Shown here: positions 1-31,704 of the stretch, piece by piece
Position numbering within the stretch: position 1 is the stretch's first letter
Layout of the letters: each line of letters starts with the position of its first letter
Source: a virus
Lineage: Duplodnaviria > Caudoviricetes
DNA: 31,704 nt
Virus record (IMG/VR): IMGVR_UViG_3300043407_000013
Span: 1 to 31,704 of that record
Strand: one strand, 5' to 3'
The notes under the pieces: generated by a model
Told to the model about the DNA's origin: nothing
Database searches by the model: none
What the model saw: the letters and a program-made list of their open reading frames with translations, nothing else
Made by a program: the position numbers and the translations under genes

Positions 1-42
1 ATCTTTGTATTCAAAAAAACTTTCGACTTCATCTTTTGTCAT
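1..42 (-). CDS. N-terminal fragment (MTKDEVESFFEYKD...) of the HNH-AP2 endonuclease, running off the left end
   Basis: ATG at 42-40 overlaps the stop of the upstream ORF (ATGA); the peptide resembles typical phage HNH N-termini; the C-terminal part lies at the right end. Confidence 0.65.
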   Translation of the reverse strand, partial: MTKDEVESFFEYKD

Positions 43-218
43 TTCTTGTCCTTTTGTTCGTTCATGCGTTGGCGTAGGTCATCGGCTTCCGCTTGCCCAC
101 GTTTCTTGGCAATGTCCGCTAGGGTTTGTTGCCACCAATATTGGGCTTCCCCCCGTCCTTCCTCCAAAACTTTCTTGCGGTAGCGCCTCACCCATTCCAT
201 TGCTTCCGTTTGTTTCAT
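39..218 (-). CDS. Hypothetical small helical protein (ORF open to 308; likely start MKQTEAMEW)
   Basis: Charged helical sequence; its stop overlaps the next ATG. Confidence 0.6.
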   Translation of the reverse strand: MKQTEAMEWVRRYRKKVLEEGRGEAQYWWQQTLADIAKKRGQAEADDLRQRMNEQKDKK

Positions 219-318
219 AGTCTCCCGTAAGTTCAAGCGCTCTTGTGATGACAAAGTAGCTAAATTGTTGACCTTCTCTAACCCGATTAAGGATTGCCGT
301 TGCTTCATGGTGTGTCAT
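79..318 (-). CDS. Hypothetical protein (MTHHEATAILNRVREG...)
   Basis: ATGA coupling to the stop of the P-like gene; natural-looking N-terminal helices; overlaps the previous ORF in another frame. Confidence 0.55.
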   Translation of the reverse strand: MTHHEATAILNRVREGQQFSYFVITRALELTGDYETNGSNGMGEALPQESFGGRTGGSPILVATNPSGHCQETWASGSR

Positions 319-704
319 CTTGAGAATTGCTTTTTTAGTTCGGCCAATTTAGCCAATGCCTCGGTTTTAACGCGATCACTCTCAATCTTTTCGTGAATGG
401 TCAACTTACGTTCAATTTGCGGCAATGGCTTAACGGGGATTTCGGGGCCTTGGTTGCACAAGTTTCTAAATTTTATGGCGCTTGGCACAAATTCCTCATT
501 GAGCTTATCAATGGCAAAGTCCATGCTTGGGCGGTACGTTAGGAATCGTCCAAGTTGCCCCTTCCATTCTTGGCGAACAAACTCGGGGTCTAGGCCGTCA
601 AAATGACGATTAAATGGTGCGCCATAAATAGCCATCATTCGCCCAAAGATGTAATCAAGACCTTGGTCTTGGGTGCAGAAATCAGTTTCCAAGTAGTTTG
701 ACAT
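315..704 (-). CDS. Replication protein P-like helicase loader candidate
   Basis: Directly downstream of the initiator; YG..F...W..L and 'FVPSAIKFRNLC' resemble the lambda P-like family; ATG at 704 with GGAGG upstream. Confidence 0.6.
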   Translation of the reverse strand: MSNYLETDFCTQDQGLDYIFGRMMAIYGAPFNRHFDGLDPEFVRQEWKGQLGRFLTYRPSMDFAIDKLNEEFVPSAIKFRNLCNQGPEIPVKPLPQIERKLTIHEKIESDRVKTEALAKLAELKKQFSR

Positions 705-1437
705 TTGTGCCGCCTCCAATTAGCCCACGGGTAAGCCCCGAAATCACCCTTTGATTCATTTGCCCCGTTTTGCTCAAATTTCGCTCATCGGGCTTTAGCC
801 AATCGGCTTGCAAACCTTGTGAACCTCTAGCGCACCAAACACTCAAAAAATCGCTAAACGCCATGTTTGCTTTGGCGGCTTCTTTTCTTGCACCTTTAAC
901 CACGGTTTCCGTGACGGGCGCTTTCTTTGCTTTGCGTAGTTGTTTCCAATCATCCCAAATTTGTTGGTCAACATCGGAGGGGCAAGCAACGATAGTTGCG
1001 CTCTCTCTCTTTGGTTTATGGTTACTGGTTACTGGTTCCTGGTTACTGGTTGGTTGACCCTCCGTTAAACGCTCGTTTAACGCTTGTTCAACGCCCGTTG
1101 AATTCTTGTTCAACGCCCGTTTGAGTGCCGATGCTTTTCCAGCCTTAGAAGCGGTAGTTAATTGTTGTTTGTAATGCTCAATTTCTTTATCGCATCTTGT
1201 GTGATGCCAACAATTATCTTGTTCATTTAAAACAAAAAACATTTCTAACAAGCCTTCAAGAACAACTTGGTTGTCCCTTGTTCCCGTTTTCATGCCAAGT
1301 TCAAATAAATTTTTTGGCAATGGCTTTTCGGAATCGTAATAAATCCAAATTAACTTTAAATAAATTCCAATTTCTTCGTTGGTCAAGAACGATGTATCTT
1401 TGATAAAGTCACCAATGTGATGTTGATAGTAGTGCAT
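682..1437 (-). CDS. DUF1376/YdaU-family replication initiator (lambda O analogue)
   Basis: N-terminus MHYYQHHIGDFIKDTSFLTNEEIGIYLKLIWIYYDSEKPL is the DUF1376 signature; internal iteron-like repeats; C-terminal 'W.DWKQLRKAKKAP.T' domain. Confidence 0.85.
   Translation of the reverse strand: MHYYQHHIGDFIKDTSFLTNEEIGIYLKLIWIYYDSEKPLPKNLFELGMKTGTRDNQVVLEGLLEMFFVLNEQDNCWHHTRCDKEIEHYKQQLTTASKAGKASALKRALNKNSTGVEQALNERLTEGQPTSNQEPVTSNHKPKRESATIVACPSDVDQQIWDDWKQLRKAKKAPVTETVVKGARKEAAKANMAFSDFLSVWCARGSQGLQADWLKPDERNLSKTGQMNQRVISGLTRGLIGGGTNVKLLGN
1012..1053. repeat. Six tandem 7-bp units TGGTTNN (mostly TGGTTAC) inside the initiator gene
   Basis: tggttta tggttac tggttac tggttcc tggttac tggttgg, read directly. 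Confidence 0.9.
1063..1128. repeat. Iteron-like array, six 11-bp units with GTTNAAC core (putative replication origin)
   Basis: cgttaaacgct cgtttaacgct tgttcaacgcc cgttgaattct tgttcaacgcc cgtttgagtgc; exact 17-mer cttgttcaacgcccgtt at 1083 and 1105. Confidence 0.8.
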
Positions 1438-1438
1438 A

Positions 1439-2353
1439 TCAAACCAAACTTTCATTGATTTTTTGCGTTGCTTTCTTCCAATCACCTTTGCAAAACACTA
1501 AGAAATTTTGATGCGTTTTAGCCATTTTTCGGCTTGATTCAAATTGCTTTGTCACACGCATTGAAGCACTACCTACGCTTGTTGCCAAAATTGCCTCGTT
1601 GTATAGCAATGCACCCGCTTGCTCAAAACCATCAATTGTTTCACTTACAAAATTTCGATAAAAACCTTTTTTGTCTCTAAAGTCTCCAACAACAAAACAA
1701 GCAAATGAATCATCTTTCATGCGTTGAACCGAACGCAAAATAATTCTTTTGTAAGCCGCCACAAACGTGTGCCATTCCATGTTTGAAAGGTCTTGAGGGT
1801 CATCGCTATAAACCTCTAAATCCCCGTATGGCGGGCATGAAAATACCATATCGGCAATGGGCGCTTGGGCAAGCATTTCCATACTATCCCCGCAAACCCA
1901 TTCGGGCTTAATAATTGTTTCAATTTCTTCGGCTTGGATTCGGTTTGCTTCAATTTGCTCTAAACGTAAATCGCATCCCCAATAATTCCGTTCTAAAGCA
2001 CCCGCGACAATACCCCTCACGCTTCCCCCCGCAAATGGGTCAAGAATTTGCCCACCTAAAGGGCTAAACCATGAATATGCAAGTTCACATACAACGGGAT
2101 CAAAAATGCTTGTGTAGTTGGCATCCGTCAAACCCGAATCATCGGAGTTTGTTGGGCAATGGATTGCGGCCGCATCGCGCCCAACTTCGCTTGCAATTCC
2201 TAGCGTTTTCCATGCACGTTTACGCTCTTGCCAATCACCACTTTTGGCATCAAGTATTGTAAAAGGCGGCATGATAAAACGCTTCGCAACTATGCCACTA
2301 GCTTGCGGTTTTGTTGATTGACCAAAAAGATCAAGAGAATAAAGTTCCGACAT
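1439..2353 (-). CDS. Amino (N4-C/N6-A) DNA methyltransferase
   Basis: SAM-binding motif I (ILDPFAGGSVRG) precedes catalytic motif IV (FSCPPY); also TSIFDPVVCELAYSWFSP. Confidence 0.9.
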   Translation of the reverse strand: MSELYSLDLFGQSTKPQASGIVAKRFIMPPFTILDAKSGDWQERKRAWKTLGIASEVGRDAAAIHCPTNSDDSGLTDANYTSIFDPVVCELAYSWFSPLGGQILDPFAGGSVRGIVAGALERNYWGCDLRLEQIEANRIQAEEIETIIKPEWVCGDSMEMLAQAPIADMVFSCPPYGDLEVYSDDPQDLSNMEWHTFVAAYKRIILRSVQRMKDDSFACFVVGDFRDKKGFYRNFVSETIDGFEQAGALLYNEAILATSVGSASMRVTKQFESSRKMAKTHQNFLVFCKGDWKKATQKINESLV

Positions 2354-2391
2354 TGAATTTTTCCACTTAAAAATCCACTTAAAAGAAACAT

Positions 2392-2447
2392 CGGCAGGGG
2401 AAAAGTGGGAACCCTTTTCGGAATGGGGATCAATCCATTCCTAGCCG
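2392..2447 (-). ncRNA. Candidate c4-like structured RNA (three-stem junction)
   Basis: Minus strand CGGCUAG...CUGCCG closing stem, GGAAUGG/CCAUUCC hairpin and GAAAAG/CUUUUC hairpin; intergenic between the Cro-like gene and the MTase. Confidence 0.6.
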
Positions 2448-2461
2448 CGTTTCAAACAATC

Positions 2462-2617
2462 TTACTCTACAAACCATTGTGGACGCAAGAACATCAATTG
2501 ATAAATTCTTCCCTTTGGAATTTTTTTCCATTGATGAACAGCAGTCCTGTGAATACCCAATATTCGAGCAAGCTCACTTTGTGAGCCAGCAAGTGTGATA
2601 GCTTTTTGTTTGTCCAT
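2462..2617 (-). CDS. cro: Cro/YdaS-like HTH regulator, 51 aa (absent from the ORF track)
   Basis: Hand translation MDKQKAITLAGSQSELARILGIHRTAVHQWKKIPKGRIYQLMFLRPQWFVE has a classic Cro-type HTH; first gene of the leftward arm. Confidence 0.85.
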   Translation of the reverse strand: MDKQKAITLAGSQSELARILGIHRTAVHQWKKIPKGRIYQLMFLRPQWFVE

Positions 2618-2623
2618 TTACAA

Positions 2624-2632
2624 AGTATAGCA
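2624..2632 (-). promoter_or_regulatory. Extended -10 promoter (TGcTATACT) for leftward, probably leaderless, cro transcript
   Basis: Lies 6 nt upstream of the cro ATG; no Shine-Dalgarno. Confidence 0.6.
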
Positions 2633-2690
2633 AAATAAACAAATATCAATTTGCAAAAATACAACACTTTAAATTATTTTTATAAAAATC

Positions 2691-2718
2691 TTGATTGGCG
2701 TATAGAAATCTATACAAT
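2691..2718 (+). promoter_or_regulatory. Rightward sigma70-like promoter (TTGATT-16-TACAAT) overlapped by palindrome GTATAGA-AA-TCTATAC (2700-2715)
   Basis: Consensus-like hexamers downstream of an AT-rich tract; perfect 7-2-7 inverted repeat. Confidence 0.65.
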
Positions 2719-2764
2719 GCACCCATGCCCTAGCAAATCGCATGGGGTCTTTTAAGGAGTCAAT

Positions 2765-2968
2765 ATGACACGTTTTACAGAGAAAACCATTCGCACTAAT
2801 GGCAAATGGGTCAAGATCACTAGAGACAACAAAGAACGCACTTTCACCTTTGCAGTAGGGTATCAAGGTGAATTTACTGCCCGTGAAATTGAGGGCACTT
2901 TGTCTTTTAAATGGGTTGCTAATTGGACGGAAGCAACAGAACGTGCAATGCGTTTGGCAACCATTTAA
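2765..2968 (+). CDS. Hypothetical early protein
   Basis: Strong SD (AAGGAG); first gene after the rightward promoter. Confidence 0.8.
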   Translation: MTRFTEKTIRTNGKWVKITRDNKERTFTFAVGYQGEFTAREIEGTLSFKWVANWTEATERAMRLATI

Positions 2969-2977
2969 GGAAACACC

Positions 2978-3238
2978 ATGAAACACAACTTACAACATAG
3001 ATTTCAAGACGCGGTGTCATTTGATGACGGCGAGACTATTGAAGTCGTCACCGTTGGCTATGACCACTTGCCCGAGAAAATCAATTACCCCCATGACCAC
3101 AACTTTGCGGAAATGTTCGATGTGTTTGTATTTGACGCAAACGAAAAAGACATTACCTATGACATCCCAAATGACGAATACAAGCGTTTGATGGAAGAAG
3201 CTAAAAAAGATTTCTACACAACTAGCGAGGCCGTATGA
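2978..3238 (+). CDS. Hypothetical acidic early protein
   Basis: SD AAGGA; tight operon packing. Confidence 0.75.
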   Translation: MKHNLQHRFQDAVSFDDGETIEVVTVGYDHLPEKINYPHDHNFAEMFDVFVFDANEKDITYDIPNDEYKRLMEEAKKDFYTTSEAV

Positions 3239-3327
3239 AACACAAAATTATTCAAACACTTATTGAGTGCGTGCTTGCCATCATCATCTTTGGCGGCATT
3301 GGCGTAATGTTGGCTTGGAGGGGGTGA
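3235..3327 (+). CDS. Small single-pass membrane protein, 30 aa (MKHKIIQTLIECVLAIIIFGGIGVMLAWRG)
   Basis: ATGA overlap with the upstream stop; hydrophobic core; absent from the ORF track. Confidence 0.7.
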   Translation: MKHKIIQTLIECVLAIIIFGGIGVMLAWRG

Positions 3328-3329
3328 GC

Positions 3330-3515
3330 ATGATTGACCACCTTAAAGATTACTTCCGCTTGCCATCGGCAAAAGAGTTGGCTGCCAAAGAACTTGAAAT
3401 GGCACAACGCAAGCTATTAGAGGCTCTTAGCGCCCAAGAATATGCAAAGCGTATGTGTGACTACCACTCGGATCGAATCAAACGCCTAACGGCTTATTTA
3501 AAGGAAGAAGCATGA
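3330..3515 (+). CDS. Hypothetical coiled-coil protein (start MIDHLK)
   Basis: GGAGG-type SD upstream; stop overlaps the erf start. Confidence 0.75.
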   Translation: MIDHLKDYFRLPSAKELAAKELEMAQRKLLEALSAQEYAKRMCDYHSDRIKRLTAYLKEEA

Positions 3516-4072
3516 AAAATCTAGCAACCGCATTAGTCAAAGCACAAAAAGCATTTGGCCCCGCCCTCAAGACATCCACTAACCCGCACTTCAAGTCAAG
3601 ATATGCGGATTTGGCGGCTTGCGTTGAGGCGGTCATTGATGCTCTAAACGACAACGGCATTGCCTTAATTCAAAAGAATTATGAATGTGCCAATGGCGTA
3701 ATGATTGAAACCATGTTTGTTCACGAATCGGGCGAAATGCTTGAGTGCGGGATTCTCCATGTACCCGCCAACAAACAAGATGCCCAAGGGTATGGCAGCG
3801 CTTTGACTTACGCTCGCAGATATAGCTTGATGGCGGCTTGTGGCATAGCCCCCGAGGATGATGACGGTAACGTAGCAAGTCGCAAGACGGTTATTGAAAA
3901 GCCAACAATCAATGAAAACGCCCTTACGGATCATTTGGCGGCTATTGAGGCATCTACCGACCAAGACGCTTTAAAAATCGCCTACAAAGCCGCTTATGGG
4001 GCTTGTAATGGCAATACGGAATGGCAAGGTAAAGTCATTGCCGCTAAAGACAAAGCAAAGGCAAAACTCTAA
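3512..4072 (+). CDS. erf: ERF-family single-strand annealing protein
   Basis: NPHFKSRYADL and AQGYGSALTYARRYSLMAACGIAPEDDDGN signatures. Confidence 0.95.
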   Translation: MKNLATALVKAQKAFGPALKTSTNPHFKSRYADLAACVEAVIDALNDNGIALIQKNYECANGVMIETMFVHESGEMLECGILHVPANKQDAQGYGSALTYARRYSLMAACGIAPEDDDGNVASRKTVIEKPTINENALTDHLAAIEASTDQDALKIAYKAAYGACNGNTEWQGKVIAAKDKAKAKL

Positions 4073-4284
4073 TGTGGCGCAAAAGGGAAATTATGAACAA
4101 ACGCAATGAAGATGATGATATTCAAGAATACATCCGACCTTGGGTTGGATTAACGGATGAAGAAATTGAAAACGCTATTGACAATGGATTTGCATTTGGC
4201 CTTGATGACGGAAACGTATCAAACCAAACCGTGATTAAGTATGTTCGAGTTATTGAAGCAAAATTAAAGGAGAAAAACACATGA
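4072..4284 (+). CDS. Hypothetical protein (WVGLTDEEI...IEAKLKEKN type)
   Basis: Common small phage ORF motif; coupled on both sides. Confidence 0.7.
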   Translation: MWRKREIMNKRNEDDDIQEYIRPWVGLTDEEIENAIDNGFAFGLDDGNVSNQTVIKYVRVIEAKLKEKNT

Positions 4285-4907
4285 TTGAAATGATTGAACA
4301 ACGCTCGGACGCATGGTTTGAGGCACGAATTGGTAAGGTCACCGCATCCCGTGTGGCCGATGTGCTTGCCAAAACCAAAACGGGCTACTCAACAAGCCGC
4401 GACAACTACATGGCGCAATTGGTTTGCGAGCGCCTAACGGGTGAAAAAGGGGAAAGTTTTACCAATGCCGCAATGCAACATGGGACGGACACCGAACCTT
4501 TAGCCCGTATATCGTATGAAGTCGCTCAAAACGTGTTAGTCGATGAAGTGGGGTTTGTCCCCCATCCAACGATTGAGATGGCGGGCGCTTCCCCCGATGG
4601 CTTGGTTGGGGACGATGGGCTGCTAGAGATTAAGTGTCCAAACACAGCCACGCATATTGAGACTTTGCTAAGTCAAACCGTGCCAAGCAAGTACAACACG
4701 CAAATGCAATTCCAAATGGCTTGCACGGGGCGGCAATGGTGCGATTTCGTTAGCTTCGATAATCGTTTACCCCAAGAACTTCAATTGTTTGTTAAACGTG
4801 TTCCACGGGACGATTTGTTTATTAAGCAAACAGAAGCAGAAATTGTCCAATTCCTTGCCGAGTTGGATGACAAAATCAACAAACTTATGAAAGTCAAAAA
4901 TGTCTAA
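4281..4907 (+). CDS. YqaJ/lambda-exonuclease family protein
   Basis: QRSDAWFEARIGKVTASR, HGTDTEP, GASPDGLV, LEIKCP, QMQFQM motifs. Confidence 0.95.
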   Translation: MIEMIEQRSDAWFEARIGKVTASRVADVLAKTKTGYSTSRDNYMAQLVCERLTGEKGESFTNAAMQHGTDTEPLARISYEVAQNVLVDEVGFVPHPTIEMAGASPDGLVGDDGLLEIKCPNTATHIETLLSQTVPSKYNTQMQFQMACTGRQWCDFVSFDNRLPQELQLFVKRVPRDDLFIKQTEAEIVQFLAELDDKINKLMKVKNV

Positions 4908-5136
4908 AATTTACGAAATTTCCGTTGTTAATGGAAAATACAAAAACAAAGATGGTGTAGAAAAATCCCGTTACCAAATCATTGGATCGGTCATTGAGAC
5001 AAAAAACGGGCCAATGCTCAAATTAGACAATGTGCCTCTTATGGATGGCGGTTGGAACGGTTGGGCATACCTTAACACCCCAAAGCCTAAAGATGACTAC
5101 AAAGGCTTGCCAAAGGACGATGACATCGATTTTTGA
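4900..5136 (+). CDS. Small SSB-like protein
   Basis: Beta-rich N-terminus, SSB-type acidic tail DDDIDF, and position after erf/exo. Confidence 0.6.
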   Translation: MSKIYEISVVNGKYKNKDGVEKSRYQIIGSVIETKNGPMLKLDNVPLMDGGWNGWAYLNTPKPKDDYKGLPKDDDIDF

Positions 5137-5141
5137 TTAAC

Positions 5142-5188
5142 GGGGGAAAGCCATGCAATTTTGCTTGCGGACGAATGGTTAGTACCCC
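5142..5188 (+). ncRNA. Candidate structured RNA with bulged-G (sarcin-ricin/loop E) module
   Basis: GGGG-GAAA-GCCAU...AUGGU-UAGUA-CCCC with an inner GCAA/UUGC stem; intergenic; no U-tail. Confidence 0.55.
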
Positions 5189-5206
5189 ACCCAATAAGGA
5201 AACATC

Positions 5207-5533
5207 ATGGACTATAAAGAAACATTTAAACGCATTTTTGCCATGCCCGAATTCCCAAGAGTTCGTGCGAATGATCCCTTAACATCTTTTGAGGCAGCGG
5301 AGTCGATTAAAGACGTTGCCCCTCAACACCACCAAATTATTTTTGATTGCCTCAAGTTTTACGGGCCACTTGGCAAAGATGGCATTTCGGCTTTGACAAT
5401 GCTTGACCCTAATCAAGTTGCTAGGCGGCTCAACGAAATGAAAATCATCGGCCTTATTCAATTGACGGGCAACACCGTGAAATCCAATTCGGGGCGAAAT
5501 GAAAGAGAATGGCAATGTATCCAATCGAACTAG
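5207..5533 (+). CDS. Winged-HTH DNA-binding protein
   Basis: RANDPLTSFEAAE leader, then HTH (...PNQVARRLNEM..GLI..TG...SGRNEREW). Confidence 0.75.
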   Translation: MDYKETFKRIFAMPEFPRVRANDPLTSFEAAESIKDVAPQHHQIIFDCLKFYGPLGKDGISALTMLDPNQVARRLNEMKIIGLIQLTGNTVKSNSGRNEREWQCIQSN

Positions 5534-5694
5534 GCAAAGCTCAACCCGTTCATAGATTACGATCTTGTAATAAATGCGATGAAACCAAACCGCCCGAAAG
5601 CGGGGTTGATATGGGGCATAAGTGGATTTGCCAATCTTGTTGGATTGTTCGTTTAACGGGTAAACACTTGAGGCAAAACAATGACAAAAGATGA
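5509..5694 (+). CDS. Small Zn-finger protein
   Basis: CNKC...CQSC pairs. Confidence 0.6.
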   Translation: MAMYPIELGKAQPVHRLRSCNKCDETKPPESGVDMGHKWICQSCWIVRLTGKHLRQNNDKR

Positions 5695-5875
5695 CTTGGT
5701 TGCATTGCTACGCATTACGGGCGCTCACGAAACCGCCATAGACGCGGTATGCGCGGCTTACGATGCGGGTTGGAACGATGCCCTTGATGACTACGCCAAA
5801 CGCATTTTGGTGCTTCCTTTTGGCAAAGACACAATCGGAAGTTTTGGGTGTTTTATCAAAGACGCTAAGAAATAA
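5681..5875 (+). CDS. Hypothetical protein
   Basis: GAGG SD; last rightward gene, convergent with the lysozyme. Confidence 0.65.
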   Translation: MTKDDLVALLRITGAHETAIDAVCAAYDAGWNDALDDYAKRILVLPFGKDTIGSFGCFIKDAKK

Positions 5876-6799: not shown

Positions 6800-6801
6800 A
6801 A

Positions 6802-7527: not shown

Positions 7528-7529
7528 GT

Positions 7530-8053: not shown

Positions 8054-8057
8054 TCAT

Positions 8058-8261: not shown

Positions 8262-8293
8262 ATCAAACTTTTTGTCAAAATTGGCATTTATGT

Positions 8294-8599: not shown

Positions 8600-8609
8600 A
8601 ATTTTCCTT

Positions 8610-10322: not shown

Positions 10323-10331
10323 TTTGTATCC

Positions 10332-22115: not shown

Positions 22116-22118
22116 AGT

Positions 22119-23739: not shown

Positions 23740-23748
23740 TTTGTTTCC

Positions 23749-23934: not shown

Positions 23935-26195
23935 TTAATCACCTCCATGCCAACGGCTTTACCATCGGGGCCACGCACGATTCTCTTTGGAGCCGAAATC
24001 AAATCGGCCACATTCTTCATCACTTGTGTGTTGTCATTTTGATTTTTGAGCATTTCTTGCATCGTCCCAATGCTATGGTTGTGGCTTTGCATGACTTGTT
24101 GGTGTGAATTGTTCACCGTGTTCATCATTGCCTCAATCATACCCCTCAAGTCTTGATTCAATGTTGCGTGCATTTGTTGTTGCGCATCCATATCCTCGGG
24201 CAAAATCGATGCCGAGTGGCTAATTTGAGCCACGCGAATCTTAGTGTTGGCATCCAACTCGGCTTTAAAACGCTCCATTTGTTGCTCGCGCTCAAGTTTT
24301 GCACTTTCAAGTTGAGCCTCAAATTGTTGTTTTTGCGATTCAAATTGTGCTTTAGCTTGTGCGATTTGCATATCCGCTTGAACACGCATTTGCTCGGATT
24401 GTTGTTGCGCTTGCAACTTCATCATTTCGGGATCGGGCTTGGGTTGTTGTGGTTGCGCCATCTTTTGCTTGATTTGGTCAAGCGCTTGGTCGATAACGCC
24501 TTCAAGTTGTTGCGATGACTTAAACGCACTTACACCAAACTTCATAACTTCCATCAAAACGGGTGTCATTTCGGGGCTTGCTTGTGCAACGGGCATGGCT
24601 TGTTGTAAGAATCCCGCAAACGCACCAATAAACTCGGTACGCTCACGCTTCATGGCCGCTTCGTCCAATTGAACCAAGCTATCCGCCGCGACCTCAATTC
24701 TAAAGTTGCGCAAAGGCTTGTTTTTAATCAACTCCAATGCTTGTGGGATCATTTGTTGATCCACGGGCTGCATTTGACTTGCGCCCGCATACATTGTTAT
24801 TGTTTGCGGTTGGAACTTCGTGCAAATGATTTGTGCCTTGAGCCTAATCAAGTCGGAGGCAAACAAAGCCACTTCCTCTTGCATAGAACGCAATCGGAGG
24901 CTTGCAAATTGTCCCTTGATTTGTTGGGCGGTAGCGGTTTCGCTTGCTTGTGAAGCACCCCTCAAAATGTCCGACAAACCCGTTATTTCATAGATTTGTT
25001 GCTTAATTTCTTGTCTTGCGCGATAGCATTGAAGCAAAGCATTAGCCAATGTATCCAACGGCAAAAGGTCGATTGCGCCCTTCAAACCGCCTTTTTCACT
25101 AAACGCCATCCACTTATCAACGGGAATCAAGGTGTTGTTATCACCCTCGGTCAACAATCGTTGCAATGCGGGAACGCTTGAATCGTAAACACCACGGACA
25201 CGCAATGACTTAACCAACCCGTCAATGCGGTCGCTCAAGATGTCCAACTCATTGGCTTGGTCTTGATAAAGTACGAAATCGGGAACGGGAACAAGGCTAT
25301 CGCTTGTCATCGTTGCATACAAAGGCTTGCAACATGGGAAAAATTGTTCTAGCTCTAGCGGGTCATCCCGCACATCAATGAACTTGTTGCCTTGCTTGCT
25401 AAACCAATAAACCTTGGCGGTGTCTTTGTCCCACAATTCGCAAATCTTTGCCCGTGTGTACTCTTTTTGGCTGCTTGCGTAGTTTGACAACGGATCGGGG
25501 CCACTATCCAACGGGATGTTTTTGGCGGCTTCCTCACCAAAACGCTCAACCAATGCGTCTTTGGTCATATAGACCCAACGCCAAACTTGGGTCACTTCCT
25601 CCCATGTACGGGCAACGCTATGGCCGAAATCGGCCCAATGAACGTAATCGGTAGGGGCGCACTCGTACTCGATTTGTTCCATCGGCTCGACTTGACCGGC
25701 CGTGTAGTCCTTGGTTTCCGCTTCGTCCGCATCTTCGGTGACTTGTAAGCCATCATCGTTTTCGGGGGATTCGGGCATTCCAGGCACTTGGACAACGTGC
25801 GGCTCATAACGAACCCAAGCCACGCCACGGCCTCCTAAGAACCGATCCTCCACGGCATAACGCATCGTGCTTCTAAAATCCGTGTAATGCTCAATCTCAA
25901 AGTCCAATGCACGCTCAACCAATATTGACGCAACACGCCCAATTGGGTCATTGTCCCCAAACCTACGGCTTACATCGGCTTTGGGCATCTTGCTATAAAC
26001 GGCGGGGATTAGAGTTTGTACGTTTGACCAAAGAATATTGAATTTAGCGGTGTCATTGCCGCTTGCGCTACGGGTGTCATCCCGATAGCGCCTAATAATC
26101 TTCTTAGTTCGTGCTTCCCACTTTTTGAACTCGTTGTCATAAGTGGCTATAAGGGTGTTGTACTTGTCAACTTCGGTTGGGACTAGTTCAGCCAT
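23931..26195 (-). CDS. Portal protein (P22-like, long C-terminal coiled-coil barrel)
   Basis: FNILWSNVQTL.PAVY, IYEITGLSDILRG..ASETATAQQIK; Q-rich C-terminal helix; start MAELVP. Confidence 0.9.
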   Translation of the reverse strand: MAELVPTEVDKYNTLIATYDNEFKKWEARTKKIIRRYRDDTRSASGNDTAKFNILWSNVQTLIPAVYSKMPKADVSRRFGDNDPIGRVASILVERALDFEIEHYTDFRSTMRYAVEDRFLGGRGVAWVRYEPHVVQVPGMPESPENDDGLQVTEDADEAETKDYTAGQVEPMEQIEYECAPTDYVHWADFGHSVARTWEEVTQVWRWVYMTKDALVERFGEEAAKNIPLDSGPDPLSNYASSQKEYTRAKICELWDKDTAKVYWFSKQGNKFIDVRDDPLELEQFFPCCKPLYATMTSDSLVPVPDFVLYQDQANELDILSDRIDGLVKSLRVRGVYDSSVPALQRLLTEGDNNTLIPVDKWMAFSEKGGLKGAIDLLPLDTLANALLQCYRARQEIKQQIYEITGLSDILRGASQASETATAQQIKGQFASLRLRSMQEEVALFASDLIRLKAQIICTKFQPQTITMYAGASQMQPVDQQMIPQALELIKNKPLRNFRIEVAADSLVQLDEAAMKRERTEFIGAFAGFLQQAMPVAQASPEMTPVLMEVMKFGVSAFKSSQQLEGVIDQALDQIKQKMAQPQQPKPDPEMMKLQAQQQSEQMRVQADMQIAQAKAQFESQKQQFEAQLESAKLEREQQMERFKAELDANTKIRVAQISHSASILPEDMDAQQQMHATLNQDLRGMIEAMMNTVNNSHQQVMQSHNHSIGTMQEMLKNQNDNTQVMKNVADLISAPKRIVRGPDGKAVGMEVIK

Positions 26196-26481
26196 TGTTG
26201 TTTCTTTCAGAAATTGCTTTTGCCTTGGCTTTGGCATCTTCTTTGGATGATGCGCCCCATGCTTTTAAAGCAAGTGCTAACCGTGTGGGTTCGCCATTCT
26301 TTTCCATTGGGCCATTAGTTGCACCCATTCGCGCAAGAAAAGATGCACGCCTTGGGTTGTCGCCCGATTTGACGGGGGGTTTTAACGTCCCGCCCGTTTC
26401 CGCAGCATAACTCGCCCGCCCTTTAGCATTCAACCCACCTTCGGGGTTTTTGCCTTCTTTGCGAGTCCATGCGGCGCTCAT
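26188..26481 (-). CDS. Small basic protein (DUF6321-like)
   Basis: AWTRKEGKNPEGGLNAKGRAS...RRASFLARM...LKAW. Confidence 0.75.
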   Translation of the reverse strand: MSAAWTRKEGKNPEGGLNAKGRASYAAETGGTLKPPVKSGDNPRRASFLARMGATNGPMEKNGEPTRLALALKAWGASSKEDAKAKAKAISERNNNG

Positions 26482-26633
26482 TTGTTCTCGGGCTTTGCGG
26501 TTTTGGCCGCGTCTTTAAAATCTTTGGCGGTAGGTGCATCTTTGCTACCCACCTTGTTCATCTTCTCACCCGAACCCGCCTTGATCCGTTCTTGTTTTGC
26601 CAAAATGTTGGCATAAAGTCCAGCTTTAGACAT
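26478..26633 (-). CDS. Small basic protein, 51 aa (MSKAGLYANILAKQERIKAGSGEKM...), absent from the ORF track
   Basis: Hand translation; fills the gap exactly with ATGA coupling; GLYANI.AK motif. Confidence 0.8.
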   Translation of the reverse strand: MSKAGLYANILAKQERIKAGSGEKMNKVGSKDAPTAKDFKDAAKTAKPENK

Positions 26634-26635
26634 GA

Positions 26636-26950
26636 TTAAGCAGAGAAGATGCCAACGCCCAACACCTCAACGCCCGCGCCTGTGGTCACGCGCCATGAGC
26701 CATTTCTAGATATGGTGTTGAACTCAATGTTATATTGACCGATGCCACCGCCAGGGGAGGCGGGCAACACCACATGGGTGAAAGTCGCGCCATCGGAAAT
26801 GCTGACGTTGCCCGTTGCGGCAGTTGATACCGTGCAAATTAGGCGGTGAAGATAATCCCCCGCTGCGCCTGTGCCACCCAAAACGCGTCCAGTTGAGCTT
26901 GCGGGGACGTGTTCATATTGGTATGCGTAAGGTGTATTTATTCCACTCAT
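26636..26950 (-). CDS. Hypothetical small beta protein (possibly structural)
   Basis: Coupled to the terL stop; G/T-rich. Confidence 0.65.
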   Translation of the reverse strand: MSGINTPYAYQYEHVPASSTGRVLGGTGAAGDYLHRLICTVSTAATGNVSISDGATFTHVVLPASPGGGIGQYNIEFNTISRNGSWRVTTGAGVEVLGVGIFSA

Positions 26951-28287
26951 ATTCGATTGCTCCTAGCGGTTTGTTTGTGGATTGCCCACATATCGTTCAT
27001 TGTGACTTCGTTTTCGGGGCCAACAATCAACACTTTACTCGGGTCAGGCGGTTTGTCTTTCGGTTCTTCCCGCCAACTAATTGCTAACATCCTCATGGCG
27101 TCAGCGGGGTGACTTGTCCAATCGTGCTTGGGCGTTTGCCTAAAAGCCTTCTTGTCCTCGTCATACTCACGCTGATACTGCCTCAACGCCTCAATCCCAT
27201 CCGCGCACTTCTCGGCATCAAACCAACATCTTGGCAATGCCATCCTTACGGCTTGAATACCATCTTGAACGGTCAAACTAGGCACAATCGCCAAGTTGTT
27301 AATGCCCAAGTGTGCGGCCATTTGCTCAATTACCGACTTCCCACCGCTTGCCAAAGTCCTAGCTCTCGCATCATGCGGTAAGTAGTGTTTTCCGTAATTG
27401 TAGGGTTTTTCTTTGATTTTTGATACAAATTCTTCAATTGTTCCACCAGAAAGGGCAAAAAAATCAACAATATGTATTTCGCCCGCAATGACTTGATACC
27501 ACCAAATTGCCGTGTCATCGGTGTGACCCAAGTCCCAAGCCGTGTGAGTCTTGACCTCAAGTTGGTTCTCAACCTTGGTTATGCGCCCATCCTCGCTTAC
27601 CTTGCGCATTTCCGTGCCCCATATCGCACCAATGATGGCCGCCTCAAAGCTGCACTCATATTCTTGCAAATATTGATCTTCGGCTAATTGCGCCTGTGCC
27701 GCTTGTAACTCGGATTCGGGCAACAACTTGGATTTGCTTGCGGGTAGTGATAGGCTAAACCACTCATTCGGTAGTTTCTTGCTTGTCTCGTAAATGTTCC
27801 AAAACTGATTCTTGCCCTTGGGCGTGCCCCCAAAGACGCACCACCCCTGTTTATCACTGAGAGCTGGCCTCACCACGTTACCCCACACACTAGGCTTAAA
27901 GTCGCCATATTCATCAAGGTAGAGGCCATCAAAACCCAATCCTCGCATGGCATCGGCATTGTCCGCACCAAATAGCCTGATCTTTGCACCGTTCAATAGC
28001 TCAATGATTAGGTCGGCCTCATTGGTTGACTTGGCGATGGGACGGGAAAAGTATTTGAGATAGTCCCATGCCACGCTCTTGGCTTGGCTTCGGTACGGGG
28101 CAACATACCCAAACAATGGCATTGGGCTTTTGCAAGTGATTGCCGCCCTGATGATGTCGTTGATGGCCGCCACGGTCTTACCCGCCCTTCGGTGAGCCAC
28201 TAAGCAAGCCCATCTCTCGGTTCTAGCGTGAAACTCCCTAAATTGCTTTCTAGGGCTATAAGGGATTTCTATGATTCCGCTTGCCAT
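26947..28287 (-). CDS. terL: Terminase large subunit
   Basis: Walker A HRRAGKT, Walker B LYLDE, GTPKG, QEYECSF, nuclease WDLG..D, LPHDA, HDWTSHPADA. Confidence 0.97.
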   Translation of the reverse strand: MASGIIEIPYSPRKQFREFHARTERWACLVAHRRAGKTVAAINDIIRAAITCKSPMPLFGYVAPYRSQAKSVAWDYLKYFSRPIAKSTNEADLIIELLNGAKIRLFGADNADAMRGLGFDGLYLDEYGDFKPSVWGNVVRPALSDKQGWCVFGGTPKGKNQFWNIYETSKKLPNEWFSLSLPASKSKLLPESELQAAQAQLAEDQYLQEYECSFEAAIIGAIWGTEMRKVSEDGRITKVENQLEVKTHTAWDLGHTDDTAIWWYQVIAGEIHIVDFFALSGGTIEEFVSKIKEKPYNYGKHYLPHDARARTLASGGKSVIEQMAAHLGINNLAIVPSLTVQDGIQAVRMALPRCWFDAEKCADGIEALRQYQREYDEDKKAFRQTPKHDWTSHPADAMRMLAISWREEPKDKPPDPSKVLIVGPENEVTMNDMWAIHKQTARSNRI

Positions 28288-28598
28288 TTAATGACCATTT
28301 CTTGTGGGCCACCGTCCGCGCCCGTGACTTCCGAGCGTGCCAACTTGGGCACATGGTACTCAACAACGCTTTGGAATAGCTCAAACGCCTTGGCGGGGTT
28401 TGGCTTTATGTCGTTTGTTATATCACCCTCGGCAACCGCATCGAGCCATTCTGCGAGCCTATGCGCGTTTCCATCCACAAATGAGGCTATGGCTTGCCTT
28501 GCCTCTTGCGTGACCTTGTTGGGCACTCCCGATGGCCTTCCGTTGGGGTTATTGGTCTTTCCCTTGCGGCTTTGTTTAACTTTGTTGTTTTCAATCAT
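28269..28598 (-). CDS. terS: Terminase small subunit
   Basis: NPNGRPSGVPNKVT N-terminus, PKLARSEVTGADGGP C-terminus; directly upstream of terL. Confidence 0.8.
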   Translation of the reverse strand: MIENNKVKQSRKGKTNNPNGRPSGVPNKVTQEARQAIASFVDGNAHRLAEWLDAVAEGDITNDIKPNPAKAFELFQSVVEYHVPKLARSEVTGADGGPQEMVIKWQAES

Positions 28599-28633
28599 TG
28601 CTTGCACCTTGTCGGGTGTGTGGCGTTATAGGC

Positions 28634-29005
28634 TTAGTCCAAATACTTTAGCTTATATAAGGTTGAATCGATGTTCTCTTGAATGTTATCCACAAGTTGA
28701 TTTAGTTCCGAGTCTTGGGGTAGCTCTTTCCTTATGTCCATTACGAACTTGGATAGAACTTCAAAGTATTTAACGGGGTCGGCATTTGGGGGGTGATACT
28801 CATTGGGGAACTTCTTTAGTTGCCCGTATTTGCCCATATAAGCCTCGGCATAGGCATCGGTTTGGTCAACGATTAGGTCGTAGAACGTGCCAAGTGCCAT
28901 GTGCTTGCTAAAGCTATTGGTTGTCCAGTGCATTAAGTGGGCATTTGTGCCGCAATGTAGTAGCGCAAGGACAAAGTTTGAAACAAATCCCGAGTATTTT
29001 TCCAT
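28634..29005 (-). CDS. Dps/ferritin-like protein (DUF5856-like)
   Basis: HLMHW..S.SKH.ALG.FYD...D..AE.YMG and C-terminal YKL..L four-helix-bundle pattern. Confidence 0.75.
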   Translation of the reverse strand: MEKYSGFVSNFVLALLHCGTNAHLMHWTTNSFSKHMALGTFYDLIVDQTDAYAEAYMGKYGQLKKFPNEYHPPNADPVKYFEVLSKFVMDIRKELPQDSELNQLVDNIQENIDSTLYKLKYLD

Positions 29006-29015
29006 GCTTTTTCCT

Positions 29016-29055
29016 AAAAAAAGTGGTGAGATTGCATTTTAATACAGTCTCACCA
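29016..29055 (-). terminator. Hairpin plus T7 tract at the middle/late boundary
   Basis: TGGTGAGAcTGTAT-taaa-ATGCAaTCTCACCA-c-TTTTTTT on the minus strand. Confidence 0.6.
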
Positions 29056-29063
29056 TAAGGCAA
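29036..29063 (-). promoter_or_regulatory. Candidate late promoter TTGCCT-16-TAAAAT overlapping the hairpin
   Basis: Hexamer match in the intergenic gap upstream of the packaging genes. Confidence 0.45.
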
Positions 29064-29071
29064 CTACAAAT

Positions 29072-29395
29072 TTAGTATATCGGAATTGGAATATCTTTGG
29101 GCCATTGATTGCTTTCAACCAACTCATTGATGGTTCTTTCATGGGCTTTTTGCCACATTTGTTGGCGCTCATCTTTTGATAGATGTGCCCCTTGGTCAAT
29201 CTCATAGTGGCATTTGAGGCATAGGGCGGCCACCAAATTGTCATCGGCCTTGATGCCCCGTCCCTTGCCACCGCCCCAATTGGTGTGAGCCGCTTGAACC
29301 CCGTTATCCATGCCACAACTTTGACAAGCTAAATTTGTCACTAGCTTTAGGAGTTTTTGGCTTCTCACATATTGATGCTTCAAATATTGTGTCAT
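29072..29395 (-). CDS. DUF1364/DUF968-like Zn-binding HNH-type nuclease
   Basis: LACQSCG...QAAH....GKGRGIKADD...ALC..CH.EID. Confidence 0.75.
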   Translation of the reverse strand: MTQYLKHQYVRSQKLLKLVTNLACQSCGMDNGVQAAHTNWGGGKGRGIKADDNLVAALCLKCHYEIDQGAHLSKDERQQMWQKAHERTINELVESNQWPKDIPIPIY

Positions 29396-29525
29396 CGGTT
29401 ATTGCGTATTCTTTGGTTAAGTATTTGTGGCCGTTATCGCAAATTCGCCTTCGGAGGATAAATTCGGGGTTTGCCCTAGTGTCTAACACTTTGTTGTGGC
29501 GAATCTTACATACGGGGCACATCAT
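29304..29525 (-). CDS. Zn-ribbon protein (NrdR N-terminal/Ogr-Delta-like)
   Basis: CPVC....KVLDTR......RRRIC.NGHKY.T.E. Confidence 0.7.
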   Translation of the reverse strand: MMCPVCKIRHNKVLDTRANPEFILRRRICDNGHKYLTKEYAITDDTIFEASICEKPKTPKASDKFSLSKLWHG

Positions 29526-30154
29526 GCGGTTTTTTCCTTTATGTCATAAAACCAATCGTCACCCGCACTCCATTTGCGTGTGCCATCAACCGTCCAAAGC
29601 CTTTGTGCGGCTTTAAAATCGGGGTGTTTTGTCTCCGAGGGAATTAGGCTTTGGTCGTACCACAAGCATCGGTTATTGGGTTGACAAGCAAATTGCCCGT
29701 TTTCTAGTGCAATAAAGTTAAAACTCTTGTGTTCCTCGGCTTGTTCGGTAAAGCCCGTGTCCAAGTCCATACCGTCCGCGCAAAAGTCAACGGTGAACAA
29801 ATACCGCCCAAAATGCCATTCCTTGTCTTTACCGTAGAACTTAACGCCCAAGTTACGCAAACCAATTTTTTCAAGGATCGTGAATTTGTACCCCATGCAA
29901 TCCCATAATTGCAAAATGTCAATTGGCAAATTACCCGCTTCCGTATGCCAAACATAAGCATGGATGGGTAGCTTGTCGTACAAAGCGCCATAGGCGGGGA
30001 GTAATGATTCAATGCGGAAAACTTGACCGCGCAAGGCTTTTAGGCTTACCCAAATCGCGGGTTCTAGCTCACCATGCCCCTTGTGATCGTTGTATAAAAA
30101 CTCACGCTTGACAAAGCATTTCATGGGCGGCAACGATGCGATTATGTAACTCAT
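29522..30154 (-). CDS. Conserved hypothetical phage protein
   Basis: GALYDKLPIHAY, LQLWDC, YLFTVDF, EHKSFN, GQFACQPNNR; ATGA coupling on both sides. Confidence 0.8.
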   Translation of the reverse strand: MSYIIASLPPMKCFVKREFLYNDHKGHGELEPAIWVSLKALRGQVFRIESLLPAYGALYDKLPIHAYVWHTEAGNLPIDILQLWDCMGYKFTILEKIGLRNLGVKFYGKDKEWHFGRYLFTVDFCADGMDLDTGFTEQAEEHKSFNFIALENGQFACQPNNRCLWYDQSLIPSETKHPDFKAAQRLWTVDGTRKWSAGDDWFYDIKEKTA

Positions 30155-30450
30155 GGGTTGCCCCTTGCTCGGATGGCATCAACAAAAGGTTGCGAAATAA
30201 TTTCCCCTGTTTTTCTTATAAATTTGGTTTCAGATGTAACACCTTCAAAAGCAGCCGACCAATTACTCATTTCATTTGAAATTTGCTCACATACTTTTGC
30301 ACAAGCCTCACGCTCATGTGCCGCCAATAACGCAACAAATTCGTTAAATTCTTCGGGAAAATGCTTAAAAAGTTGTTTTAGCAAAATGATCCAATCGTCA
30401 TCACCTTTTCCCGCTTTGAACGCCATGCTTATAACTTCATCTTGTTTCAT
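30151..30450 (-). CDS. Hypothetical protein (AAHEREACAKVCE...AIRARG type)
   Basis: Common small phage motif; coupled. Confidence 0.7.
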   Translation of the reverse strand: MKQDEVISMAFKAGKGDDDWIILLKQLFKHFPEEFNEFVALLAAHEREACAKVCEQISNEMSNWSAAFEGVTSETKFIRKTGEIISQPFVDAIRARGNP

Positions 30451-30848
30451 GCTTCAATCCCCTTCTCGGCCATCCAACACAATAGCCATTCAATAAATTC
30501 CGAACCTTCTTCTTTGGTGAATTTGTGGCTTTGAATGCCTAGTTGAACCACCCTTTGCCCGTCAAGGCTCGGGGCAACCTTGCCTAACTTGCGTCCCGTC
30601 TCATTAGCCCATTGGTCAATTAGTAGGCGTTTCCAATCATCCGATGACCACTCCGAGCCAACAACCTTCATGGCTTTGGCTATTTGGTCAATTAGGGCGT
30701 GAAACATATCGTTTTGCTCATTACTTCGGGTTGCTTTTTTAACCTCTAAACGTAGCTGCTTGCCCGCTTGCAAGGTTTCTTTAATCTTGGGCCACAAGTC
30801 TTTTAGGACGGTATGGGCTTGTTGGCTATTGTGTAACGTGAAAATCAT
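30447..30848 (-). CDS. ninB: NinB/Orf-family recombination protein
   Basis: TRSNEQN..FHAL...IAK, W...DWK.L, VAPSLDG..VV.LG..S.KFTK.E.SEFIE. Confidence 0.88.
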   Translation of the reverse strand: MIFTLHNSQQAHTVLKDLWPKIKETLQAGKQLRLEVKKATRSNEQNDMFHALIDQIAKAMKVVGSEWSSDDWKRLLIDQWANETGRKLGKVAPSLDGQRVVQLGIQSHKFTKEEGSEFIEWLLCWMAEKGIEA

Positions 30849-30934
30849 GGCTTAAATCCTATGTAGTAATAAACCAATCCCCAATGGACAATTAACAATA
30901 AACACAAAAGTGTGTAAATAACTTTATTGCTCAT
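30845..30934 (-). CDS. Small membrane peptide, 29 aa (MSNKVIYTLLCLLLIVHWGLVYYYIGFKP)
   Basis: ATGA overlaps at both ends; hydrophobic. Confidence 0.65.
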   Translation of the reverse strand: MSNKVIYTLLCLLLIVHWGLVYYYIGFKP

Positions 30935-31353
30935 GCTTGCCTCACCATGACTTCAACCTTTGCCACTTCCCCATAAACCTTTGTGGCGTGAATTGATGTG
31001 ATTTGGGAATCCGATAAAAAGACAATTTTGTCCATGCCATCGCATATTGCTTTGACCACATTATCTAAATCGGGCTTTTTTGTGTGTTTCTCAACATTGC
31101 TTAAACAAGCCTCTATGCGTTTTTTTGAGTATGAGGCGGGAACGGCAAAGGTAACGTAAATAAATGCCTCTAATGCCCCTTCTAAGGGCTTTGAACCGCC
31201 CATTGCGGCTAAAGCCATCATGCCAACTTCAAATTCAAAGGCTTTTGTCTTTTCGGGGGTGTAAGCAACGGGAAACTTTCCCCTTGTGGAAAACCTTGGC
31301 CTTCCTTTGGGCGTTGGAGTTCCATAAACTGTAAACATAATGCTGATGCTCAT
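30931..31353 (-). CDS. rusA: RusA-family Holliday junction resolvase
   Basis: G.P.PKGRPRF, YTP, KPDLDNVVKAICDGM...F.SDSQI. Confidence 0.93.
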   Translation of the reverse strand: MSISIMFTVYGTPTPKGRPRFSTRGKFPVAYTPEKTKAFEFEVGMMALAAMGGSKPLEGALEAFIYVTFAVPASYSKKRIEACLSNVEKHTKKPDLDNVVKAICDGMDKIVFLSDSQITSIHATKVYGEVAKVEVMVRQA

Positions 31354-31703
31354 GGTTGCCTCGCAAATTCGCCAAACAATTTTTGTTCTGCAATTTTTCT
31401 AGCAGCAATTGCATTTTCTATTGACAGAAACAAACCTATGTGTTTTATTTTTTTATCAATTTGAATTCGTGCAGCCCATTTATTTCGTTGTTTATTCCAA
31501 AAAACACCGCTACAACCTGATGAGTTATCAATACGCTTTTTTAAATTCATTTGATTTTGCGTTCTAGTGGCAACACGCAAATTTACTAATCTATTGTCAT
31601 TTCTTACACCATTTATATGGTCAAGAAATTCTGGCATAAAACCGTAATGCATTAACCAAATCAAACGATGCGCTCTAATTGATTTGTTTTTAAAACCAAT
31701 AAC
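31350..31703 (-). CDS. HNH-AP2 homing endonuclease (5'-truncated at the window end)
   Basis: Frame open to the end: VIGFKNKSIRAHRLIW...DHINGVRNDNR..NLR, then NSSGCSGV.W...KW.ARI......HIG.F (AP2). Confidence 0.92.
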   Translation of the reverse strand, partial: VIGFKNKSIRAHRLIWLMHYGFMPEFLDHINGVRNDNRLVNLRVATRTQNQMNLKKRIDNSSGCSGVFWNKQRNKWAARIQIDKKIKHIGLFLSIENAIAARKIAEQKLFGEFARQP

Positions 31704-31704
31704 A

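Follow-up and report, generated by a model that had tools for sequence, protein, structure and literature searches.

The window analysed here, 31,704 bp long, is the whole of virus record IMGVR_UViG_3300043407_000013 (Duplodnaviria; Caudoviricetes) and represents a near-complete freshwater podophage genome (1–31704) from which about three quarters of the CAG/CTG trinucleotides have been purged; this purge is real, selective, recurrent and unexplained. The + strand carries 130 CAG and 111 CTG (241 in total), compared with 413.5 and 488.1 expected from base composition, which amounts to ~900 sites or one per ~35 bp, in line with the one per 35–40 bp assumed by the initial annotation, an earlier reading of the sequence that proposed a genome-wide loss of CAG/CTG and CCGG on both strands. 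The stretches 1–675, 1143–2394 and 14280–15570, reported there as free or essentially free of sites, each contain 0 CAG and 0 CTG. Across the 52 genes called in the window, coding DNA has 240 CAG/CTG, compared with 645.5 under a shuffle keeping codon usage and 1025 under a null keeping the proteins only. Under the latter null the deficit extended over the three frames of both CAG (31, 63 and 22 versus 273, 223 and 92) and CTG (10, 106 and 8 versus 113, 255 and 69), and the 811 bp of intergenic DNA contained 3 sites versus 16.7 expected. The proposal of selection on a very short DNA target withstood the three findings named in advance as speaking against it: the depletion persisted under the codon-preserving null and was not limited to in-frame codons, DNA of the candidate host shared no such bias (CAG 1.02 of expectation over 352 kb), and no one ordinary longer restriction site accounted for the loss.

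Annotation with PHROGs revealed lambdoid early genes and a head and tail module resembling that of the Mx8-like podovirus, the capsid matching that of Mx8 at 52%; complete relatives of the phage measure 31.8 and 32.9 kb. At least half of the sampled window words were present in eight sequencing runs (seven freshwater metagenomes and one metagenome; four of the eight flagged as possible sources). Runs X12–X23 shared few or no words with the window and were left out of the analysis. Among the contigs of run X5 listed over 9800–19000, seven of eight pieces agree with the window without any difference, and since these pieces are identical to it, the window sequence is real.

The loss is genome-wide as proposed in that it spans both strands, every frame and intergenic DNA, but its layout is mosaic, with 78 sites in 25,094 bp of poor zones and 163 in 6,610 bp of islands, the borders having been set after inspection of the CAG/CTG profile:

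1–31704, no strand: whole genome, CAG/CTG 7.6/kb versus 29.3–32.3/kb in unpurged kin
1–2389, no strand: CAG/CTG-poor zone, replication genes and methyltransferase
3001–8293, no strand: CAG/CTG-poor zone, recombination and lysis genes
8294–9750, − strand: CAG/CTG-rich island, small gene and variable tail-fibre part, 29–42/kb
9751–18863, no strand: CAG/CTG-poor zone, genes for ejection and tail proteins, among them the 100-Gln protein of 14013–15968
18864–21600, − strand: CAG/CTG-richer island, capsid, scaffold and neighbours, 14–34/kb
21601–26599, no strand: CAG/CTG-poor zone, including the portal gene
26600–28000, − strand: partly rich island, holding a small gene and the 3' part of the terminase gene
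28001–31300, no strand: CAG/CTG-poor zone, nin-like region

For the island at 8294–9750, no counterpart could be aligned in three unpurged genomes, and it was likely imported. The capsid island is likewise spared in the partly purged kin G407–G410, and shares 91–92% nucleotide identity with unpurged genomes, compared with 83–88% elsewhere. Recombination is the likely cause of the rich islands, which would be imports or regions homogenised with unpurged kin; codon constraint in highly expressed genes may be an alternative source.

Analysis of 747 sites at which at least two close relatives read CWG (W, A or T) and the window does not, oriented as CAG, revealed that the window now reads CGG at 236, CAA at 190, CCG at 120, TAG at 72 and AAG at 26, although part of the CCG class may derive from the other W state. 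Most single-base changes were transitions; nevertheless, losses were not limited to C-to-T or G-to-A (CGG 236 and CCG 120 versus CAA 190 and TAG 72), and the commonest escape, through the middle base, contradicts deamination at methylated CWG, which the initial annotation had offered as an alternative. Relative to three unpurged genomes there were 1424 losses, of which 1151 (81%) were protein-neutral, 66 gains and 317 kept sites (pooled, non-independent counts). The route in each frame was what the code permits: CAG to CAA in frame, W to S (C or G) in the middle frame and, in the last frame, C to T. Within the poor zone, CAG serves for 10 of 506 Gln codons and CTG for 4 of 664 Leu codons, and where a codon with a final pyrimidine precedes AG or TG, that pyrimidine is C in 3 of 98 cases, compared with 677 of 1494 elsewhere; the 100-Gln product of 14013–15968 lacks any CAG codon, as the annotation had observed for this Gln-rich protein. 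Fourfold nC codons end in A/T in 19% of cases before G versus 50–73% before other bases, whereas codons of the nG and nT types do so before G in 51% and 82%. Because CCGG is avoided as well, Pro before G[ACT] is forced into CCC (108 of 114 in the poor zone) and Ala, Thr and Ser before Gly mostly take G-ending codons, which explains the excess of CCCG (192, 1.69-fold) and CGGG (153) that had been ascribed to such funnelling. Since all three bases are altered and 81% of the losses are silent, selection rather than deamination or codon bias is responsible, and we are highly confident that it acts on the duplex CAG/CTG word.

Comparison with three unpurged relatives (83–92% nucleotide identity, over 25 kb) showed that the poor zone retained 37 of 454, 37 of 410 and 30 of 409 ancestral sites (7–9%), compared with 660 of 1016 (65%) between unpurged genomes. 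Every NCAGN, CAGNN and NNCAG context lost sites except CCWGG, the sole consistently kept context (6/13, 5/19 and 5/6), which is kept because Pro-Gly forces it (10 of 10 poor-zone cases); a type II site of 4–8 bp is not supported. Among the 32 strand-merged 3-mers, CAG alone dropped sharply against kin (0.25; next lowest 0.75), with GAG at 0.99, GAC at 0.84 and CAC at 1.01. CAG exhibited no strand polarity (130 CAG and 111 CTG on the + strand, 46 and 32 left in the poor zone), and sites of the two orientations were retained at 22/189 and 15/265, in contrast to the one-orientation loss of type III avoidance. Seven other 5-mers were near-absent on the + strand only and frequent on the − strand (GGTGG 0/54, CGAAG 0/33, GAAGG 0/27, AGAGC 1/29, ACGAG 0/16, GAGGT 1/14 and GACTC 0/10); their polarity holds across genes of both directions, most are common to relatives, and they fit type III-like footprints in one genome. 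No gapped 3+N3–9+3 motif with a CAG half-site was near zero in 197 pooled loci in a scan covering three-base second halves (lowest CAGN5CTG, 478/965), and tests of distal 1–3-mer context singled out nothing but CCCAG relative to other CAG/CTG words. The window holds 8 CTG..CAG pairs spaced at most 15 bp apart, versus 22.8 by label shuffling; paired and isolated sites were retained alike (0.12–0.15 versus 0.14–0.17), and the paired-nick model, which would have suited the nickase suggested in the annotation, was rejected. CTGNCAG occurs 0–1 times in purged versus 5–7 times in unpurged genomes, and CAGCTG 0 times in all eight genomes counted. A Mom-type SASNY test revealed no pyrimidine preference (CAGNY 0.23 and CAGNR 0.27 in the window; G606, L786, G608 and G610 similar).

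The loss is graded within the clade and recurs outside it. In 31 loci with portal proteins 90–97% identical, CAG ranged from 0.30 to 1.20 of expectation, with CCGG, GGACC and CGACG near zero, compared with CAG at 1.08–1.69 in 49 more distant loci. A tree of the portal (1.5 kb, with 3 sites in the window versus 43–60 in unpurged kin) split 13 sequences having 3–37 sites from 17 having 43–60, with a support of 0.992 (midpoint root), and whole-record densities of four partly purged kin were 17.3–21.3 CAG/CTG per kb, those of three unpurged kin being given above. G406, from a second podophage group, is 71–73% identical in nucleotides to its relatives and closer to those than to the window; it keeps about 45% of their CAG/CTG sites, with an escape spectrum as in the window. 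A scan with the window's methyltransferase found a siphophage (G606) and two P22-like podophages (G608 and G610) with 7.1–7.9 CAG/CTG per kb and 160–204 CCGG each, and terminase scans extended their clades (loci not deduplicated). In the G608 clade, 16 loci had CAG at 0.09–0.61, versus 0.81–1.65 in 64 sister loci; of the 79 loci of the G606 family, the 34 that form the G606 clade had GAG at 0.07–0.19, with CAG mostly near 0.5 (range 0.20–1.26). Some of the sister purges additionally remove GAG, GAC or CAC, and CAG belongs with these in a group of S-A-S words depleted to unequal extents. Within the G606 family (L763–L841), one large clade has GAG/CTC at ~0.1 of expectation whatever the flanks and whether or not the methyltransferase is present, and this loss recurs in the 72–73% group and is absent from the 78–84% group.

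The second depleted word, CCGG, was found 9 times versus 87.6 to 138.7 expected, in agreement with the scarcity reported by the initial annotation, whose examples at 7727, 10975 and 15433 are among the nine. These sites and the phage gene considered with them are as follows:

7727, 10975, 14230, 15433, 17639, 17666, 18325, 18784 and 25696, no strand: the nine CCGG sites counted in the window
1439–2353, − strand: amino-methyltransferase (N6_N4_Mtase) gene, FAGG motif before SCPPY, 0 CAG/CTG in the gene

CCGG behaved as an orthodox type II site, with an observed/expected ratio of 0–0.29 in 31 close loci, and six near-complete kin have 0–17 copies. Purged and unpurged kin both hold it near zero, and other CAG-purged phages carry it at normal or high levels; therefore, the losses of CAG and CCGG are decoupled, CCGG does not belong to the CAG target as its joint listing had implied, and it has been lost as a separate and older trait, common to the clade and of ordinary HpaII type. 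At five of the nine sites most aligned relatives read CWG (7727 rests on two relatives).

The methyltransferase matches PF01555 above the cut-off (37.5 bits), and its FxGxG-like S-adenosylmethionine-binding motif and its (D/N/S)PP(Y/F) motif are invariant or nearly so in 60 homologues; its motif order is permuted and its N-terminal loop variable. Its best sequence matches in the PDB were 2zie, 6pbd (CcrM) and 8s9n, none of them a close solved structure, and its AlphaFold model (pLDDT 71.6) matched generic Rossmann methyltransferases only. Eight related virus records, of which four are at least 90% complete, yielded no copy of the gene, and since partly purged kin lack it, partial purging does not require it. 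In the deduplicated set of loci with GC below 50%, CAG was below 0.5 in 9 of 32 carriers versus 8 of 262 others, an enrichment that comprises few, non-independent lineages and on which it bears that the new purged lineages were found with the methyltransferase as query. CCGG counts in carriers and in non-carrier kin were 9 in the window versus 0–2 in partly purged kin, 204 in G606 versus 3, 363 in G608/G610 versus 16, and 105 in G609 versus 0 in G406; CCGG avoidance was thus relaxed in carriers in four of four families, while CCSGG was missing or scarce in the window, G606 and G609 and merely reduced in G608/G610. The SPPY motif is associated with N4-methylcytosine. Judged from these motifs and counts, the enzyme may shield CCGG through cytosine-N4 methylation; against this, no regain was seen in a subclade whose loop differs (CCGG 0–0.04 in 8 of 9), and G005 and L687 have CCGG despite lacking the gene. 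The early arm of kin (G003–G005 and G407–G410) carries interchangeable modification genes, namely a 5-methylcytosine (m5C) methyltransferase, Mom-like plus ParB genes, a PAPS reductase and a short methyltransferase.

A related phage contig lies inside the Burkholderiaceae metagenome-assembled genome G001 (2.1 Mb, about 45% GC), which we take to be probably Polynucleobacter-like, and another genome of this family carries a capsid gene of 73% identity within a 1.2-Mb contig. Searches covered 401 genomes of the family (5 not scorable) and 241 genomes of the genus of G001, one per species, a sampling that would miss strain-level defence islands. No integrated window phage or clear spacer match was found in the 241 genomes (query 1–20000; two candidates scored per genome); the 352 kb mentioned above is pooled DNA of this genus. 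m5C methyltransferases occur in 55 of the 241, and neighbours in the 30 loci scanned include the HpaII, Eco47II, EcoO109I, HaeIII, HinP1I, MvaI/BcnI, Mrr and AspBHI families. These neighbours agree with the CCGG and GGWCC losses in the window, RE_HpaII adjoining the methyltransferase in 1 of 30 loci of a host genus that is itself a guess. A search for N6_N4_Mtase in five genomes of the genus gave one match and was uninformative. The one low locus lies in the chromosome of G460, an integrated element of ~18.6 kb (integrase, primase, collagen-like fibre gene and 20-bp end repeats) with 14.1 CAG/CTG per kb versus 33.6 in its flanks; as the element is CAG-poor and the chromosome is not, mobile DNA resident in the genus shows the loss while candidate-host DNA remains unbiased. 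The element (L847 1–17100; G460:C1 about 1533400–1552050) is phage-like, has 0 GTAC, and carries its own m5C methyltransferase plus a 523-aa neighbour without a matched family. Complete sspBCD loci are present in G446 and G212, and sspBC on a cut contig in G578. In L322 (9340–19849) and L324 (7029–17519), PLD-like, ATPase-like and helicase-like genes face sspBCD; PADLOC scores none of these as a known Ssp effector, and they are possibly an undescribed restriction arm.

We favour, with a probability of roughly 0.45, a host DNA-targeting defence with a three-base, adenine-centred target and weak action at each site. The phage lineage has shed most CAG/CTG by silent changes on both strands, likely under a defence that, in some hosts, reads the bare three-base duplex word, so that every site left would carry a small survival cost. 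Such an agent would be host-encoded and would act on DNA rather than RNA, because both strands are purged, and its probability of harm per site would be low, given the 241 sites left and the apparent advantage that partial loss still brings; silent changes could then be fixed singly in large phage populations. An efficient endonuclease is unlikely, because partial loss would bring no reward with 241 sites left. The agent is probably adenine-centred, since the sister purges hit GAG, GAC and CAC, and probably restriction-modification-like, and the CCGG loss may be an older response to an HpaII-type enzyme that is now relaxing under the phage methyltransferase. More tentatively, and with less expectation, freshwater bacteria might possess anti-phage DNA readers of an undescribed family whose specificity is three-base, adenine-centred and switchable (CAG in the window, GAG first in the siphophage clade, and CAG, GAC and GAG in the P22-like clade), acting per site and reshaping phage codon use within about 10–15% nucleotide divergence, with the widespread phage methyltransferase shielding CCGG in these phages. 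Several observations weigh against the favoured explanation. CAGC is down to 0.05–0.14 in the G606 and G608 families and 0.28 in G406, G/C-flanked sites fall most in the G460 element, and several CAG-containing 5-mers are strand-polarised in other purged genomes (ACAGG 0/40 in G406; CCTGT 0/62 in G606); this context dependence fits stacked longer sites, and the flat context in partly purged kin could come from mosaicism. The host is a guess from co-binned contigs, one family-level capsid match and the G460 element. The defence-gene searches of the genus found no enzyme with three-base CAG specificity, and candidates for short targets were rare there (DUF4007 in 4, Mrr_N in 5 and Cas1 in 2 of 241 genomes, and DarT in 0 of 241, where no positive control responded).

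The main rival, somewhat unlikely in our judgement, is a stack of ordinary adenine-methylating systems (type III, IIG, I and BREX) whose 4–7 bp motifs have a CAG core in common and turn over between host strains. The guild is exposed to many systems, the window having seven polarised 5-mers, and the best evidence for stacking is the context dependence in G606/G608, seen also in G406, G610 and the G460 element, together with the polarised CAG-core words just named; different families have also lost different S-A-S words. However, the poor zone of the window spares no four- or five-base context except the forced CCWGG, both orientations are lost while GAG, GAC and CAC are barely touched, the 197 loci revealed no gapped CAG half-site motif near zero, no distal context bar CCCAG stood out from other CAG/CTG words, and, in the portion of PMC6286503 covered, avoidance of type I and IIG sites was not found and that of type III sites was rare in phages. 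An Ssp or BREX type 4 phosphorothioate system that has C*AG as its consensus and restricts unmodified CAG-rich DNA is improbable: C*AG is a real three-base motif by PT-seq in gut metagenomes, beside C*CGG (sections covered of PMC11931770), and sspBCD loci exist in the candidate genus, but the characterised SspBCD marks C*CA according to the sources seen in part, CCA is not depleted in the window (1181 versus 1201), DUF4007 is as scarce as stated, and cutting by SspE at the motif is not described in the portions of the literature covered.

About equally improbable is that the phage methyltransferase at 1439–2353 marks CAG itself and so lays the DNA open to Mrr or another modification-dependent nuclease, its own targets becoming a liability. 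The consensus of Mrr is G-m6A-C/C-m6A-G (m6A, N6-methyladenine). The carrier enrichment below 50% GC agrees with this, as does the fact that carriers are the deeper-purged members in three of four families, and the gene itself is CAG/CTG-poor in most of one clade even in richer genomes (1 versus 23/kb); yet the gene is missing from partly purged G407 and G408 (each 98% complete), L786 and L687, none of 38 carriers with at least 50% GC has CAG below 0.5, the variable loop differs between purged carriers, and it is regained CCGG that tracks the gene best. In the parts covered, PMC3973329 terms the Mrr site obscure and PMC2614495 holds nothing on it. The remaining two candidates are very improbable. 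A mutational or translational deficit (deamination of methylated CWG, preferred codons, a target in mRNA or tRNA, or avoidance of primase sites) would accommodate the frequent changes of CAG to CAA or TAG and of CTG to TTG and the predominance of transitions, but is largely refuted, as the main route runs through the middle base, beyond cytosine deamination, towards G/C, the deficit extends to both strands, every frame and intergenic DNA, candidate-host DNA is unbiased, and CWG was swapped even for the otherwise avoided CCGG at five sites. CAG as a CRISPR protospacer-adjacent motif (PAM), removed under population-wide spacer pressure, would yield a three-base, two-strand, context-free and graded loss; this suggestion of the initial annotation is unlikely if the host guess is right, given Cas1 in 2 of 241 genomes, and the spacer comparison of window 1–20000, with two candidates scored per genome, gave no convincing match.

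Restriction-site avoidance in double-stranded DNA phages has been described for orthodox type II systems (Rusinov et al. 2018, PMC6286503, covered in part). The CAG purge acts like such avoidance, yet does not fit type II, type III or bipartite sites. As in the type II case, the word is silently lost on both strands, and the window has ordinary type II cases of its own (CCGG, GGWCC, CGWCG, AACGTT, CCATGG and AAGCTT); unlike it, the target is three bases long and non-palindromic, and the loss is graded, leaving 241 sites, and polymorphic within the clade of 90–97% portal identity. Phage T7 and EcoP15I exemplify type III one-strand avoidance. The seven polarised 5-mers of the window resemble it, in contrast to CAG, which is lost in both orientations; the inverted-pair rule of type III systems is given in the portion covered of PMC12707154. 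Phosphorothioate defence likewise uses a three-base anti-phage DNA motif, C*AG being the same word (PMC11931770, in part), whereas the described Ssp systems, in the sources seen in part, mark CCA, so that the ssp loci of the candidate genus stand as candidates; no phage avoidance of phosphorothioate motifs was reported in the literature searched. The target of phage Mu Mom, (C/G)A(C/G)N(C/T) (PMC3299994, in part), has an S-A-S core that covers the CAG, GAG, GAC and CAC lost across these phage families; unlike the present case, Mom protects by modification, the window has no fifth-base pyrimidine preference, and Mom-like genes occur in purged and unpurged kin. The window enzyme shares FAGG, SCPPY and the Rossmann methyltransferase fold with the N6/N4 amino-methyltransferases (PF01555), and differs from those with structures in its permuted motif order and variable N-terminal loop. 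Dpd was rejected as a source, since its motif is CxGCxG and not CAG (PMC10164549, in part). CAG is not mentioned in the sections covered of the MANTIS preprint, a Polynucleobacter methylome contained a type I motif and two type III candidates only (PMC7522526, in part), and Lake Biwa methylomes had no three-base CAG motif among the rows covered (PMC6329791). The comparison also draws on portions of PMC12914056, PMC9646914, PMC13251355, PMC8092258 and bioRxiv 10.64898/2026.09.23.753747; no prior report of phage CAG/CTG avoidance was found in the literature searched, with supplementary motif tables and most subscription papers outside that search.

Known site avoidance concerns words of 4–8 bp, and a three-base target should be inescapable; several phage families have nonetheless cut their CAG load three- to tenfold via silent changes, which would imply a defence whose cost scales with site number. 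The clade provides a natural graded series of 7.6, 17–21 and 29–32 sites/kb, phage genomes may serve as a means to read undiscovered defence motifs, and CCGG protection is a concrete prediction for a large uncharacterised family of phage methyltransferases.

Among other phage genes, the following was checked as a self-encoded CAG nuclease, without support:

29072–29395, − strand: DUF968/YbcO-like HNH gene

It is a doubtful candidate, because its His/Cys core is identical in unpurged phages and the link follows descent; in homologues of at least 85% identity (84.8 rounded up), 19 of 19 rows had CAG at 0.19–0.81, some rows sharing a contig. The gene at 5681–5875 was rejected as a cause, being present in many unpurged phages, and no other phage DNA-modification gene followed the purge among eight relatives. 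Further words at zero in the window are GGYRCC, ATTAAT, CCGCGG, CCGCTC/GAGCGG, CTCTTC/GAAGAG and CCSGG, beside GGWCC, CGWCG, AACGTT, CCATGG and AAGCTT, and pooled guild loci lack GCCN5GGC, GACN3GTC and GAAN4TTC. A Dps/ferritin-like gene (phrog_858, DUF5856) at 28634–29005, upstream of the terminase genes, is conserved in kin. Short tandem 7-bp repeats at 1025–1048, inside the replication-initiator gene, contain 4 of the few surviving CAG/CTG sites and are possibly the iteron region of an origin.

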